64,000 nucleotides of DNA from Candidatus Eiseniibacteriota bacterium. GTDB lineage: Bacteria; Eisenbacteria; RBG-16-71-46. The translations under genes were made by a program, and so were the position numbers. Location: assembly GCA_963717935.1 (NCBI GenBank), contig CAVQXP010000001.1, forward strand, positions 64,001-128,000, in the 5' to 3' direction. A model generated the notes under the pieces. It saw only the letters and a program-made list of their open reading frames with translations. It searched no databases and was not told where the DNA came from. Each line of letters starts with the position of its first letter. The first letter of the stretch is position 1. Shown one piece after another: positions 53,971 through 58,579 of the stretch.

Positions 53971-54046
53971 TGGTGGAGCTGAACGGGATCGAACCGTCGA
54001 CCTCTTGACTGCCAGTCAAGCGCTCTCCCAACTGAGCTACAGCCCC
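53971..54046 (-). tRNA. tRNA-Ala(GGC)
   Basis: GGGGCTGTAGCTCAG...CTTGA-CT-GGC-AG-TCAAG...GGTTCGATCC...CTCCACCA; 76 nt, encoded CCA. Confidence 0.98.
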
Positions 54047-54196: not shown

Positions 54197-56293
54197 TCAA
54201 CGGGGCGGGCCGACCTCTTCGTGCAGCGCGCGCTGGACCGCCGCCCCTCCCGCACCGCGGGCGCGCAGCCACTCCAGCAGCTTGCGCGCCTGCGCCTGAT
54301 CGTCCGGGTGGCCGCCTCCCAGAGCGAGGAAGCGCTCGAGCGAGCGCCGGGACTCTCCGTAGCGCATGGCCTGCGACTGGACGTAGCCCAGCAGCCACCA
54401 GTGCCGCCCGACCCCGGGCGCGAGCAAGGTCGCGGCGTAGGCCTCGACCGCAGCGTCCGTCTCGAAGCGGGGGTCGTTCACCATCAACCCGCCGAGCACC
54501 GCGTGCGCCTCGGGATCGAGCCCGTGGCGTCGCACGCCCGCTGCCATGAGATTCAGGGCGGCCATCGTGTCGCCGGCCGCCACCAGACGCATCGTCTCTG
54601 CGATCTCGGGCGTGGGTCCCGCGTCGAGGGCCACCCCTGCCGCCCGCAGTTCCTCCCGCGCACCCGCGGTGTCCCCCAGCGCCCAGCGCAACCAGCCACG
54701 GCAGTACGGCGCGAAGAGTTCGGTCGGGGCCACCGTCTCCGGAAGCTCCAGCAGGTCGAGGGCGACACGAGGGCGGCCGGAGACCATCGCCGTCATCGCG
54801 ATCGTGCGCAGCCGCGCCCGGTCGAGCTTCAGCTCGACCAGGCTGTCGCGCTCGACGATGAAGGCGAACGCCGGCCCGCGGCGGTAGCGCTCCCCGCTGA
54901 ACTCCATGAGGAAATAGGAGCGCAGGCTGCTGTCGCGATAGGCCCAGCGCAACAGCGGACCGTCCGCCGCCTGGAAGCTGCAGAATGCCGGCAGCCCGCC
55001 GAAGAACACCGTGCTCCGCGGGGGCAGCGCGGGCCGCGCGGCGCGCAACTGTCCGAGGTAACGCTCGACGAACGAGGTCGCGCGTTCCACGTAGCGGCGG
55101 TTCACGTGGGACTGGGTGGTCCAGGCGCCCGGGGCCGTGATGAACTCGTCGAGCCGCCGTCCGTTCTCCGAGCCCCAGACCAGCAGCGCCAGCACCACGA
55201 GCGTCGTCTCGCGCGAGCGCCCCGCCAGCCACGCGCCCAGCGCGAGCCCGGCGCCGCACAGGGCGAACAGGTAGTAGTAGGCGCTCCAGGCCGGCGCCAC
55301 CGCGGTCACCGGCAGCGCCCCGAGCAGCGCCCAGACCAGACCGAGCAGGACCGGCGGGAACCCCGGCGCGGCGACCGCGCCCGCCGCGCCGCCCCGCCCC
55401 TTCCCCGCGAACGCGACTGCGGCGAGCGCGAGCGCCAGCGGCACGAGCGGCGGCAACAGCGTGAGCAACCGCGACTCGCCCCCGCGCCGCCACTCGAGCC
55501 CGAGGCCCACCTGCAGCAGGTGCGCGAACGCCGCGGCCGCACCCGCCGGACTCCAGGCGACCGCCTCGCGCGCCCCCGCGCTGCGCAGCATGACCACCAC
55601 CCACAGCACCACCCACGCTGCGACCGCGAGCCCGAGCGGCCACGCGCGCACGAGGCTCCGGCGCCACGGCTCGCCCTGGCGCCGCGCCGCCAGCGCCGCG
55701 ACCAGCGGCGTGAACAGCACCGTCTCCTTCGAGAGCAGGCCACCGAGCAGCGCCACTGCGGCGAGCCAGCGCCGGCCGGCGAGGAACAGCGCCAGCGCCC
55801 CGAGCGCGCCGGCCAGCGCCAGCAGGTCCTGGCTCCCCGAGGCCCACAGCAGCGGCACGTCCGCCGCGTAGTGGAGCGCCACGAAGGCGGCCGCCACCGC
55901 CGCCGCCACCGGGCCCGCCAGGCGCCGCGTCACCAGGAACAGCAGCACGACCACCCCGAGGAAGAGCGCGAGGCTCACGGCGTGGAAGACCACCGCCGAC
56001 TCGCCGCCCGCGCGCGCGAGCAGCCAGAAGTAGAGTTGCCGCCCCACCGGCCGGGCGAAGTTGCCGATCGGGTCCGGCCCGCTCAGCGCCGCCCACAGCG
56101 TGCGGTGCCGCACCTGGTCCAGGAAGAGGAAGTCGTCGGCGAAGAACGGCGCGCGCAGCGCCGCGCGCTGCAGCCAGACCGCCGCGAGCAGGACGAGCGC
56201 GAGCACCGCGGGCCCGGGCAGGACCGGCCAGGCGCAGCGCACGGGCGGCGCGGCGGTCACGACACGGACGGTGTCGGGGGATCTGGGCTTCAC
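54197..56293 (-). CDS. GT-C fold membrane glycosyltransferase-like protein with C-terminal TPR-like helices
   Basis: PFFADDF..L loop, RPV, LLSKET motifs; many TM segments. Confidence 0.75.
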   Translation of the reverse strand: MKPRSPDTVRVVTAAPPVRCAWPVLPGPAVLALVLLAAVWLQRAALRAPFFADDFLFLDQVRHRTLWAALSGPDPIGNFARPVGRQLYFWLLARAGGESAVVFHAVSLALFLGVVVLLFLVTRRLAGPVAAAVAAAFVALHYAADVPLLWASGSQDLLALAGALGALALFLAGRRWLAAVALLGGLLSKETVLFTPLVAALAARRQGEPWRRSLVRAWPLGLAVAAWVVLWVVVMLRSAGAREAVAWSPAGAAAAFAHLLQVGLGLEWRRGGESRLLTLLPPLVPLALALAAVAFAGKGRGGAAGAVAAPGFPPVLLGLVWALLGALPVTAVAPAWSAYYYLFALCGAGLALGAWLAGRSRETTLVVLALLVWGSENGRRLDEFITAPGAWTTQSHVNRRYVERATSFVERYLGQLRAARPALPPRSTVFFGGLPAFCSFQAADGPLLRWAYRDSSLRSYFLMEFSGERYRRGPAFAFIVERDSLVELKLDRARLRTIAMTAMVSGRPRVALDLLELPETVAPTELFAPYCRGWLRWALGDTAGAREELRAAGVALDAGPTPEIAETMRLVAAGDTMAALNLMAAGVRRHGLDPEAHAVLGGLMVNDPRFETDAAVEAYAATLLAPGVGRHWWLLGYVQSQAMRYGESRRSLERFLALGGGHPDDQAQARKLLEWLRARGAGGAAVQRALHEEVGPPR

Positions 56294-56309
56294 GGGGTTC
56301 CTCCCGGAG

Positions 56310-56383
56310 GTGCGGCGTGACGGCCCTGCGAGTCGCGGGACTGTAGCGCGGCGGGACGCGTGCCGGGAAGTGCGAAACGGCGG
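56310..56383. repeat. copy A of 74-bp intergenic direct repeat
   Basis: 62/74 ungapped identity to 57571-57644. Confidence 0.9.
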
Positions 56384-56392
56384 CCGCGTGCC

Positions 56393-57430
56393 TCAGGCCG
56401 CGACTACGACGCGGTTGCGCCCGTCCGCCTTCGCCCGGTAGAGCGCGCGGTCCGCGGCCTCGATGAGCCCCGGCGCGTCGGCGACCGGACCCAGCGCCGT
56501 CGTGGCCACCCCGAGGCTCAACGTCGCGCGCACCACCCCGGACGTGGTCTCGAAGCGCTCCCCCTCGACCTTCCCGCGCATGCGCTCTGCGATGGTCAGC
56601 GCGGCGGTGACGTCACAGCGCGGCAGGACGACCAGGAACTCCTCGCCGCCGAAGCGTCCGACGGCGTCATACGGCCGCACCGCCGCGCGCAGGCTCGCCA
56701 CCACGCCGAGCAGCACGCTGTCGCCGGCCGGGTGGCCGAAGGAGTCGTTCACGCTCTTGAAGTGATCCACGTCCGCCATGATGACCGAGAGCGGCGAGCC
56801 GTCGCGCGTGGACCGCGCCAGCTCGCGCTCCAGCACCTCGAGGATGGCGCCCCGGTTCCACGCGCGCGTGAGCGGGTCCAGCATGGCGCGGCGCCGCAAC
56901 TCGTCGCGCTCCGCGATGAGCGCCGCCTGGCCCTCGCTCAGGGCCTGCATCTCGAGCTCACCCTGCACCCAGCCCGCGAGGAAGCGCAGCGTCTCGAGGT
57001 CGGCCTCGTCGAGCCGCCGCGGGCGCGTGTCCATCACGCACAGCGTGCCCACCTTGCTGCCATCCGTCACCCAGAGCGGGTGCCCCGCGTAGAAGCGGAT
57101 GAACGGCTCTCCGGTCACGAGCGGGCTGTCCCGGAAGCGCTCGTCCTCGAGCGCGTCCGGCACCACGAACGTGTCGTCGCCCAGGATGGCGTAGGCACAG
57201 AACGAGATCGCGCGCGGGGTCTCGGTGGCCCGCACGCCGTGAGCGGCCTTGAACCACTGGATGCGCGAGTCCACCAGCGAAACCAGCGCCATCGGCGTGC
57301 GCAGGACGCGCGCCGCCAGCCGCGTGATGCGCTCGAAGCGCTCCTCGGCCGGCGTGAACAGGAGCCCCAGATCGTGCAGGGCGCGCACGCGCGCGGCCTC
57401 GTCGGGCGGCAGCGGGGCTTCGATCATCAT
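56393..57430 (-). CDS. GAF-domain diguanylate cyclase
   Basis: GAF (SFC..AI, IRFYAG.PL), DVDHFK.VND.FGH..GD, RPYD I-site, GGEEF. Confidence 0.95.
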   Translation of the reverse strand: MMIEAPLPPDEAARVRALHDLGLLFTPAEERFERITRLAARVLRTPMALVSLVDSRIQWFKAAHGVRATETPRAISFCAYAILGDDTFVVPDALEDERFRDSPLVTGEPFIRFYAGHPLWVTDGSKVGTLCVMDTRPRRLDEADLETLRFLAGWVQGELEMQALSEGQAALIAERDELRRRAMLDPLTRAWNRGAILEVLERELARSTRDGSPLSVIMADVDHFKSVNDSFGHPAGDSVLLGVVASLRAAVRPYDAVGRFGGEEFLVVLPRCDVTAALTIAERMRGKVEGERFETTSGVVRATLSLGVATTALGPVADAPGLIEAADRALYRAKADGRNRVVVAA

Positions 57431-57570
57431 TCGTCTTTCCTCCTGGCCTCCCTGCCCCGGGAGCACACGAGGTCCCCCGGGAACGGCCGCCCGGCGGCGG
57501 CGCCCGGACCGCCCTTTCGATGCGGGCAGCAGCCCCATGGCACGCCGGTTCACATCCCCGGGACATCGAC

Positions 57571-57644
57571 GTGCGGCACAACGGCCCTGCGAGCCGCGGG
57601 AATGTGGCGCGGCGGAGCGAGTACCGGGAAGCGCGAAGCGGCGG
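57571..57644. repeat. copy B of 74-bp intergenic direct repeat
   Basis: 62/74 ungapped identity to 56310-56383. Confidence 0.9.
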
Positions 57645-57700
57645 ACCGTCGGGCCCGCCGCTCGCGCCGTTCCTGCGGGGCGCCGGCCGGCGCCCCGGAC

Positions 57701-58261
57701 CTACCTCTGCAGCCGCACGACCACGCGCGACTGGGGGCTCTTGGCGCGGGCGAGCAGTCGTACGTAACGCACCGTGCGCCCGTCGCGGAAGTCGAGCAGC
57801 GAGTAGAGGCCCGGCCGGTGCGTGCGCGCGTTGAAGTCCACGACCTGGGCCTGGCCGTTGCCGAAGACCACCTCGGCCCAGTCCAACTGGGTGCGGCCGG
57901 TGAGTTCGAGATAGAGCTTGTCGCCGCGGTCGTTCACGTCCAGCGCGACCTCGGTCCAGCCCTCGTACTTCTGCAGGGTCTCGCCGTCCTCCCACACCAG
58001 CCGCGCGCGCGGCGGCAGGCTGACGAACAGCGGCAGCCAGATGACGGGCCGCACGTAGACCAGGCGCTCGGTCACGACCACCGGCCGCCGCCGCAGAACG
58101 ACCACGGGCAGCGCACGGCGGATCGGGAAGCCCGGGTGCACGACCACCCTCGTGCGCGCGCGACCTTTGCGCTCGGCGACCTTGACACGGGCCATCCCGG
58201 CTTCGGCGGTCAGAAGTACGGCGGACAGCGCGATGATGCTGACGACCAGGAACCGTCTCAT
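57701..58261 (-). CDS. secreted hypothetical protein (V/R-rich N-part, beta-sandwich C-part)
   Basis: GAGGAGG SD, signal peptide, coding-like codon use. Confidence 0.75.
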   Translation of the reverse strand: MRRFLVVSIIALSAVLLTAEAGMARVKVAERKGRARTRVVVHPGFPIRRALPVVVLRRRPVVVTERLVYVRPVIWLPLFVSLPPRARLVWEDGETLQKYEGWTEVALDVNDRGDKLYLELTGRTQLDWAEVVFGNGQAQVVDFNARTHRPGLYSLLDFRDGRTVRYVRLLARAKSPQSRVVVRLQR

Positions 58262-58308
58262 CTCTTCCTCCTCGTGCGACCAGGGGAGCGCGGTCGAGCA
58301 GGGTGAGC

Positions 58309-58324
58309 AGCAGGGTCCGTGCCA
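58309..58324 (-). promoter_or_regulatory. sigma54 (-24/-12) promoter candidate
   Basis: TGGCACG-GACC-CTGCT with exact GG-N10-GC spacing, ~48 nt before ATG. Confidence 0.6.
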
Positions 58325-58490
58325 CACCCTGCGAGGGCCCACTGCAAGGCCCCAGCGTGGCGCCGTGACGCCGCCGTGACAACGGTGAACCTAGCTGGTC
58401 GCACGACTGGATGGAAGATGCCCCTGCCGGTACGGCTGCGGCGCGGTTGGTGGGTCCGTACGGCCATGCTAAATTGCCGTCCCACCCCGT

Positions 58491-58579
58491 GCCGGAGTGG
58501 CGGAACTGGCAGACGCGCGGGACTCAAAATCCCGTGAGGCTCAAACCTCGTGTGGGTTCGACCCCCACCTCCGGCACCA
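58491..58579 (+). tRNA. tRNA-Leu(CAA)
   Basis: GCCGGAGTGGCGGAACTGG...CGGGA-CT-CAA-AA-TCCCG, long variable arm, GGTTCGAC, CCA end. Confidence 0.97.

Follow-up and report, generated by a model that had tools for sequence, protein, structure and literature searches.

A terminator-promoter module in two copies around a diguanylate cyclase gene of a Candidatus Eiseniibacteriota bacterium: a probable scar of recombination

Why does a non-coding sequence of some 74 bp stand in direct orientation on both sides of a gene for a diguanylate cyclase? The question was raised by an initial annotation of a 64,000-nt stretch of DNA from a Candidatus Eiseniibacteriota bacterium (assembly GCA_963717935.1, contig CAVQXP010000001.1, positions 64,001 to 128,000; hereafter the window), in which the two copies precede two adjacent genes, the cyclase gene and a gene for a putative membrane glycosyltransferase of the GT-C type. 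Three explanations had been offered: a cassette that is gained or lost by recombination between the copies, with an effect on cyclic di-GMP (c-di-GMP), a duplicated promoter co-regulating c-di-GMP synthesis and surface glycosylation, and a dispersed repeat family. The reading that we consider probable is another one, namely that a terminator-promoter module was duplicated and left behind as a scar of recombination, in which the copy before the glycosyltransferase gene (copy A) would work as a promoter and the copy before the cyclase gene (copy B) is probably weak or dead.

All protein genes of the locus are on the minus strand. Along the sense strand lie, one after the other, tRNA-Leu (on the opposite strand), a gene here called p213, the hairpins t1 and t2, copy B, the cyclase leader, the cyclase gene, copy A, a Shine-Dalgarno (SD) sequence, the gene for a membrane protein of 698 amino acids (aa) and tRNA-Ala. 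The features needed first are these:

56307-56383, minus strand: copy A, a promoter-like module with a 5′ untranslated region (5′UTR) of ~45 nt (repeat search, relatives, genome-wide motif)
57568-57672, minus strand: copy B, extended module, with the 77-nt core at 57568-57644 and hairpin t2 before the core (repeat search, alignment with the metagenome contig L070)
57627-57697, minus strand: terminator-like hairpins t1 (57676-57697) and t2 (57627-57673) after the stop codon of p213 (RNA folding)
57431-57565, minus strand: conserved leader of the cyclase gene, 135 nt (aligns with the genomes G005 and G004 and with L070)
56393-57430, minus strand: GAF-GGDEF diguanylate cyclase, 345 aa (Pfam, TIGR00254)
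56298-56305, minus strand: SD sequence GGGAGGAA of the 698-aa gene (read from the sequence)
54197-56293, minus strand: gene for the 698-aa membrane protein with a predicted N-terminal GT-C fold and a C-terminal TPR part (third-position G+C content, GC3, 0.94)

A repeat search of the window aligned copy A (56307-56383) with copy B (57568-57644) without gaps at 64 of 77 positions (83%) and gave the same offset of 1261 nt as had been reported; for 56310-56383 versus 57571-57644 a script reproduced the earlier figure of 62 of 74 positions exactly, and the analysis of open reading frames (ORFs) and of GC3 agrees that both copies are non-coding. The motifs described before were found again on the minus strand: TTCCCG (56369-56364), 18 nt and TACAGT (56345-56340) in A, and TTCCCG (57630-57625), 18 nt and CACATT (57606-57601) in B. 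Directly after the second hexamer, the -10 box, lies the longest identical run of the two copies, 13 nt of sequence CTCGCAGGGCCGT. The DNA adjoining the copies is unmatched (3/20 and 5/20 identities). The genome that contains the window (G000; 3.0 Mb in 5 contigs, 93% complete) has ~70% G+C, and the repeat is not an artefact of this composition, since copy A as blastn query against the whole assembly found B with E=6e-17 and the next match only with E=0.003, while an nhmmer profile built from four copies found in the same genome only A (E=3e-16) and B (E=7.5e-16) ahead of a match with E=1.3.

These searches also bear on the idea that the repeat is one of a family that is dispersed or mobile, such as REP, MITE or similar elements, an idea for which nothing speaks beyond the two copies themselves and which we regard as most improbable. 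The search for further copies that the initial annotation had called for returned A and B alone, two copies in 3.0 Mb. The nhmmer profile found one copy each in a 19.9-kb stretch of G004 and in a contig of G005, both genomes of the same genus, and each of the three relatives with the module (G005, G004 and L070) has a single copy, at the position of A. When 185,579 species genomes were scanned with an exact pattern, one stretch matched, the G005 contig. A MITE-like element was rejected, because by eye there were neither terminal inverted repeats nor a target-site duplication at the boundaries of B.

The copies in the relatives reveal more of the unit than the pair in the window does. Copy B could be aligned with the copy at the A site of L070 over 102 nt (57672-57571, 86% identity), so that the full unit must exceed 77 nt. 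The 3′ arm of hairpin t2 is formed by the beginning of the B core (~14 nt), and the RNA comprising t1 and t2 (57620-57705) folds with -59.7 kcal/mol (z=-3.2; 1 of 200 shuffles equals it). At the A site of L070 a hairpin is present as well (-55.5 kcal/mol, z=-5.6); the own copy A has lost the 5′ arm and with it the fold (z=+1.0). We infer a module of ~105 nt composed of a putative terminator hairpin, a sigma-70-type promoter and a 5′UTR, of which the 77-nt repeat would be the core.

Is copy A a promoter? The answer was sought in the genome's own signals, with ~2,200 ORFs called by GC3 and the 605 upstream regions that have at least 90 nt of non-coding DNA. The hexamers with the strongest strand bias in these regions were TAGAAT (14 sense to 0 antisense), TTGACA (12 to 0) and TAGACT (16 to 1). 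The class TAnAnT occurred 80 times in sense and 14 times in antisense orientation, with 1.06 sites per kb upstream of genes versus 0.19 per kb genome-wide, and upstream of these sites T peaks at -24/-23, equivalent to a spacer of 17-18 nt. The pattern TT[CG]nCn-N17/18-TAnAnT, which A matches, was found at 81 sites of the genome and in the 605 regions 16 times in sense to 2 times in antisense orientation; for TACAnT the ratio was 10 to 2. As an observation on the genome as a whole, its promoters appear to be built from a -35 box TTGACA, a spacer of 17-18 nt and a -10 box (TGC)TAGA(A/C)T.

The -10 box of A is TACAGT and those of the orthologous copies are TACACT (two) and TACATT, all of the TAnAnT class. 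The copies at the A site agree in the -35 box TTC(C/A)CG, in the -10 box TACA(C/G/T)T and in the distance of 18 nt between the two, whereas the sequence of this spacer is variable. The A-type -35 box (TTCCCG or TTCACG) shares 3-4 of its 6 positions with TTGACA, and its distance from the -10 box, 18 nt, agrees with the position of the T peak (-24/-23). Because the genome's own promoter pattern fits and both hexamers and spacing are kept in the relatives, A is best read as a conserved promoter of the sigma-70 type whose -35 box is weak and after which come a 5′UTR of ~45 nt and the SD sequence. The claim that A abuts this SD sequence was confirmed (gap of 1 nt; SD sequence from 56305 to 56298, then the GTG start codon at 56293).

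Could the repeat instead be a sigma-54 promoter or a cis-acting RNA (leader, riboswitch or small RNA) common to both genes? The genome encodes sigma-54 (PF04552, E=1.7e-62), and A contains CGGCAC-N5-CCGC, in agreement with GG-N10-GC; upstream of genes YGGCAC-N5-NNGC is found 26 times in sense and 5 times in antisense orientation. Four copies, however, have CCGC as the -12 element and that of G004 has CGGC, none of them TGC, and the G004 copy also lacks the GG at -24. Of the 26 sense matches 11 have TGC, and the subclass to which A belongs, CGG[CT]AC-N5-CCGC, shows 3 sense to 2 antisense sites. The sigma-54 promoter was therefore rejected on its -12 element and on the G004 copy, despite the presence of rpoN. 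Canonical sigma-54 sites, TGGCAC-N5-TTGC, were seen in the 605 upstream regions 3 times in sense and 0 times in antisense orientation. With respect to RNA, Rfam gave for 55500-58500 two matches (E=0.12 and 7.6 at a limit of E 10), both below the gathering threshold and outside the repeats, and the UTR part folds no better than its shuffles (z=+0.57). That the repeat works in one of these ways is very unlikely.

Copy B differs from A in its history. It is not found at the corresponding position in G005, G004, G002 (also of the genus) or L070, and the homology of the window to G005 ends at 57565 and that to L070 at 57568, which is the 3′ edge of B. L070 and G005 have in common a different upstream gene, here called X (84.5% identity over 982 nt). 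To judge from these alignments, B is lineage-specific and sits on a recombination breakpoint between the segment with p213 and the leader that is conserved before the cyclase gene. In the 77-nt core A and B are identical at 64 positions, A and the L070 copy at 67 and B and the L070 copy at 67; the private changes number 6 in A, 6 in B and 3 in the L070 copy. This star-like divergence indicates that the duplication is about as old as the split from L070.

One of the changes private to B is a T-to-C substitution at the first position of the -10 box, which now reads CACATT. In the 605 upstream regions CAnAnT occurred 47 times in sense and 64 times in antisense orientation and CACAnT 14 times in each, thus without sense bias, as compared with the 80 to 14 of TAnAnT. 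By the genome's own standard the -10 box of B is degraded, and with its -10 box decayed, B is probably weak or dead as a promoter.

What then becomes of the proposal that both copies are working promoters which put the cyclase and the GT-C gene under the same promoter or factor and so couple c-di-GMP to envelope glycosylation? Half of it stood: A conforms to the promoters of its own genome and has conserved counterparts at the orthologous site. The other half, B, is weakened by the lost first T of its -10 box, which puts B into the class with a ratio of 47 to 64. The proposal has more in its favor than the architecture of A. A and B do not differ in the -35 box, in the length of the spacer (18 nt) or in the 13-nt block CTCGCAGGGCCGT; B is in sense orientation upstream of the cyclase gene (137 nt before the ATG at 57430, about the 140 bp given initially), where the two terminator hairpins would insulate it; and by eye the conserved leader shows no clear sigma-70 promoter of its own. 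In addition, a contig designated X4, described below, is without A but keeps B, which would leave B (or the leader) to transcribe both genes, and the only X4 indel listed in B, 4 nt after 57595, leaves the spacing unchanged. Beside the decayed -10 box, these points are opposed by G005, G004, G002 and L070, which run the cyclase without B, by the number of private changes, which with 6 is in B as high as in A and gives no sign of stronger constraint, and by the alignment of the five copies, in which neither a palindrome nor an operator-like element is conserved. Two active promoters under common control therefore appear to us as a minority possibility, rather unlikely but to be kept in mind.

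The DNA of the X4 contig (record 27; 2616 nt, depth 45.5, ~93% identical) extends from the 698-aa gene through cyclase, leader, B and p213 to tRNA-Leu. At its A site 82 nt (56309-56390) are exchanged for 24 letters, the first 15 of which are the start of the module, so that the A promoter is missing from the -35 box through the UTR. B is kept, with the 4-nt insertion after 57595 located downstream of the -10 box. We infer that the change was a deletion of ~60 nt between the similar motifs TCCCGG (at the -35 box) and TCCGGG (in the SD region); in the X4 strain the cyclase gene would be transcribed together with the GT-C gene as a single unit. Since X4 keeps B without A and the relatives have A without B, each copy is individually dispensable in nature.

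How did the module come to lie on both sides of the cyclase gene? For this question the borders of the locus are of importance:

58491-58579, plus strand: tRNA-Leu(CAA), left-hand border of the variable segment (ARAGORN)
57701-58261, minus strand: p213, gene for a secreted protein, 186 aa when counted from the ATG at 58261, with an ORF up to 58342 (GC3 0.91)
53971-54046, minus strand: tRNA-Ala(GGC), conserved right-hand border (ARAGORN)

The tRNA-Ala(GGC) flanks the locus also in G004, in G007 and in G016, a genome of another genus of the family. The tRNA-Leu(CAA) is 100% identical in G004, 96% in G005 and 92% in G002. From it to the leader there is 0.9 kb in the window, 7 kb in G004, 1.7 kb in G005 and 0.25 kb in G002, and the sequences between are unrelated. 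The tRNA-Leu gene is a synteny breakpoint, with DNA on either side unrelated between genomes. The locus between the two tRNA genes is recombination-prone, and the event proposed here is of an ordinary kind.

With A as the presumably ancestral and B as the second copy, the module could have come to both sides of the GAF-GGDEF gene by two routes. Unequal crossover at short similar motifs may have duplicated in tandem a 1261-bp unit composed of leader, cyclase and module, after which the upstream leader and cyclase would have been lost. Alternatively, DNA with p213, t1, t2 and the module could have come from a close relative by recombination anchored in tRNA-Leu and joined illegitimately at the leader. 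Both routes would yield the order module, leader, cyclase, module, and the data appear to favor neither decisively. Points for the import are the linkage of B to p213, the break of homology at the edge of B and the existence in the genus of a cyclase-less arrangement, that of G006. By either route B may once have given the cyclase gene the same promoter as A; the repeats would by now be too diverged for efficient homologous excision.

Homologous excision is the core of the cassette explanation, according to which the cyclase gene is at present cut out or multiplied by recombination of A with B, so that the c-di-GMP output is switched within populations. It is attractive in that direct repeats 1261 bp apart enclose exactly one gene, that the cyclase gene was found in 4 of the 8 genus genomes (G000, G005, G004 and G002; in G006, G007, G003 and G001 there were only partial matches in the GGDEF domain with 36-41% identity, G006, G007 and G003 being 81-87% complete) and that in G006 p213 lies directly before the GT-C gene. 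Efficient RecA-dependent recombination, however, needs roughly at least 25 nt of identity, and the copies have 83% identity with 13 nt as the longest identical run. No Pfam recombinase was found in the 8 neighboring ORFs scanned.

Population data were sought in the sequencing runs, of which 22 were listed, 20 of them with part of the window (shares 0.06-0.16). Four sediment-metagenome runs were followed as Logan contigs, which drop rare variants and none of which spans the whole window. A junction of A to B (a skip of 1261 nt) was not among 15 of the 21 joints in these four runs. A joint in X3 (record 23; 57565-57676, depth 6, 23 letters on one side) would be equivalent to a missing 110-nt B; it is too weak and was not counted. 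A joint in X2 (55799-57788, depth 2.3, with 29 other letters between) was set aside as probably spurious.

G006, in which p213 is followed by a t2-like hairpin, by ~110 nt and then by the GT-C gene with no cyclase between, is also not a clean case of the single-copy empty site for which the initial annotation had asked. Its intergenic region gave no significant match to the module (nhmmer E=4), it is without the HerA-like gene to be discussed below, and its GT-C protein, with 68% aa identity, is distant. As evidence for a product of recombination between A and B it was rejected, because of this E value, of the ~110 extra nt and of the HerA-like gene missing too. Taken together, the cassette explanation has support only as history, through the indel patchwork among relatives and B on a breakpoint, and is quite improbable as a present-day switch.

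Several results weigh against the scar with a working A and a weak B. A generic sigma-70 scan of 56000-58000 returned 0 sites, the blank being due to the poor -35 box TTCCCG. None of the 22 sequencing runs is an RNA run that covers the region. The star-like dating rests on 77-105 nt of only five sequences. CACATT of B keeps the A at -11 and the T at -7 and could still fire. The direction of copying is made less certain by the 5′ arm of t2, which is missing from the A copies of G000 and G005 and present in that of L070, a distribution that conflicts with a simple tree and calls for parallel deletions or for gene conversion. Finally, G006 has a t2-like hairpin after p213, and the hairpin could accordingly have belonged to p213 from the outset and not to the cyclase.

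The relatives also disclosed what A was probably a promoter for. In L070 a gene for a HerA_C/DUF853 ATPase of 509 aa (PF05872, E=1e-181; L070:2457-3986) comes directly after the A module and separates it from the orthologue of the 698-aa gene. In G016 the order is p213, a GAF-GGDEF gene (43% aa identity), a HerA-like gene and tRNA-Ala(GGC). The arrangements in G016 and L070 together indicate that the order p213, cyclase, HerA-like gene, tRNA-Ala is old. G005 and G004 have remnants of the HerA-like gene beginning with MEPRSLD, of 20 codons in G005 (L014:3929-3991) and of 27 codons in G004 (in L013), where the remnant overlaps the start codon of the downstream gene. The N-terminus of the 698-aa protein, VKPRSPDTVR, aligns with MEPGFLDAVR of the HerA-like protein of L070 and with MEPRSLD(V/I)VR of the remnants in G005 and G004. 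By this alignment the N-terminus of the 698-aa protein is chimeric, its first ~10 codons (~56264-56293) being an in-frame leftover of the HerA-like ATPase gene, a gene that was not found anywhere in the own assembly (93% complete). The ancestral A would have been located downstream of the cyclase gene and would have started the HerA-like ATPase gene, with the GT-C/TPR gene next; after deletion of the ATPase gene in the own lineage, A may then directly drive the gene of the 698-aa membrane protein.

The labels given to the two genes by the initial annotation fared well, although on different grounds. The cyclase was borne out by Pfam, with GGDEF (PF00990) at 1.5e-39 and 135.7 bits (cut-off 23.8) and GAF at 2.9e-15, and by TIGR00254 (5.7e-48, 162.8 bits); it contains a GGEEF motif (peptide GRFGGEEF). 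The GT-C label is upheld by the predicted fold alone and by no sequence profile, the 698-aa protein having zero matches in Pfam, NCBIfam and the PDB sequences, as was also the case with sequence families for five GT-C/TPR paralogues. An AlphaFold 2 model of moderate confidence (pLDDT 67.6), calculated from an alignment of 10 sequences, was compared with known structures by VIA-align, in which residues ~22-453 scored Z 15.0-17.7 against AglB (17.7), STT3 (17.6), Pmt1/2 (16.9), Pmt4, ALG12, ArnT (15.4) and PglB (15.0), where according to the tool's own note helical bundles can attain a Z of ~13 by chance. The top 13 rows were made up of 11 GT-C enzymes and 2 of a GPI-transamidase chain, with 282-315 residues aligned and root-mean-square deviations of 4.4-6.1. 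Residues 554-686 gave Z ~11-12 to TPR chains. Foldseek against the PDB matched the model in the TPR part only; the GT-C fold was seen with the wide VIA-align search. An acidic motif in the first outer loop is a hallmark of GT-C enzymes; D53, D54 and D59 of the 698-aa protein, invariant in the 10 sequences, would at most be candidates for it.

Membrane proteins with GT-C fold and TPR part appear to form a family that sequence profiles do not see, with several paralogues per genome in the genus. Paralogues of the 698-aa protein are encoded at G000:C4:1165352-1166635 and G000:C2:459745-461136, and another, 50% identical, is found in G004, G005 and G002. The neighbors of the GT-C/TPR protein in the protein atlas are mostly hypothetical proteins of Candidatus Eiseniibacteriota.

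The secreted protein p213 has no match in Pfam or NCBIfam; the atlas gave DUF2541 as a lead, with a score of just 0.85. Of the 81 genomes that represent the taxonomic family, 47 were found to encode homologues, in some cases two in tandem (L044, L053, L040). In the same-genus relatives with the cyclase locus p213 was found in 0 of 4; elsewhere in the genus it occurs in G006 and G007, and in G007 the contig with p213 and the contig with the GT-C gene each end inside the locus.

The leader of the cyclase gene has no match in Rfam and a fold z of -1.27. In G005, G004 and L070 its invariant blocks are GA(T/C)GTGAAC(C/G)GG and GCATC..(A/G)AAGGG, and G016 has a similar block, TGAACCG. The cyclase gene itself is 93% identical to that of L070 (90% at the protein level) and 85% to those of G005 and G004. 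A metagenome search with the cyclase protein yielded L070 as the sole close relative among the 80 loci kept; the next three loci (53, 43 and 42% aa identity), which with L070 are the best 4 of the 80 and were examined, had no significant copy of the module (best E=0.12) and no GT-C neighbor. Among 41 genomes searched, the unpublished G026, on which nothing stated here is based, gave a single weak match in the GGDEF domain.

Other small rearrangements were seen around the module. In G004 (L013) an extra ORF of ~110 codons lies on the opposite strand between the stop codon of the cyclase gene and the A copy, another indel at this place. In L070 (2306-2340) the cyclase gene has its terminal 12 nt, stop codon included, repeated 23 nt further downstream, a small tandem duplication just before t2. 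In G006 (L061:2870-2960) the DNA from the p213 terminator to a promoter-like GCTAGATT upstream of the GT-C gene contains three direct repeats of approximately CGCGCCCGGG(G)(A/T)C, which could be an array for the binding of a factor.

A bolder synthesis would be that the turnover of cassette and promoter is ongoing in an Eisenbacteria population: the cyclase gene is gained and lost between strains by recombination anchored in tRNA-Leu and tRNA-Ala, the portable module is carried along, and the repeats are the handle by which c-di-GMP input to envelope glycosylation is switched. If so, the cyclase and the GT-C gene would be transcribed separately in the genome of the window and as one operon in X4, and the GT-C gene without the cyclase in G006. 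We consider this synthesis as doubtful, though worth stating. The duplicated, partly decayed module needs only an ordinary mechanism, a regulatory region left in two copies by recombination, and its value is chiefly descriptive. It is accompanied by a first promoter picture derived from data for a candidate phylum without cultured members, TTGACA-N17/18-TAGAnT, of which A is a conserved example. It shows how the locus of a c-di-GMP cyclase is remodeled among close relatives, with loss of a HerA-like gene, a putatively chimeric N-terminus of the GT-C protein and a promoter deletion in one strain, and it draws attention to a GT-C/TPR protein family unseen by sequence profiles. Should B be active, the locus would offer a natural example of one promoter used for both c-di-GMP synthesis and a glycosyltransferase.

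To which known systems can the locus be compared? It resembles the remnant of a tandem duplication in that direct copies bracket one unit, that the spacing of 1261 bp is the length of this unit, that the 3′ edge of B abuts the leader and that similar short motifs are found at the putative crossovers, TCCGGGAGG after A and TCCCGGGG at the start of the leader. It is unlike such a remnant in that only the module of 77-105 nt is doubled and not the cyclase gene, which makes it necessary to assume a second deletion, and in that the copies are 17% diverged.

The second comparison is with homology-facilitated illegitimate recombination (PMC3240628), a known process that combines one homologous anchor with one illegitimate junction. 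The locus is similar in having the tRNA-Leu anchor on one side (100% identical to that of G004) and a non-homologous break on the other, and in that the replaced segment varies among relatives from 0.25 to 7 kb. It is dissimilar in that the direction can be read either way, as a gain of p213 and B here or of gene X in the relatives.

Finally, as in promoter duplication or capture, the same -35 box, the same spacer length and the same downstream block stand before two adjacent, co-oriented genes; in contrast to it, the -10 box of the second copy is degraded, and this copy lies 137 nt from the start codon, ahead of a leader that the relatives use alone.

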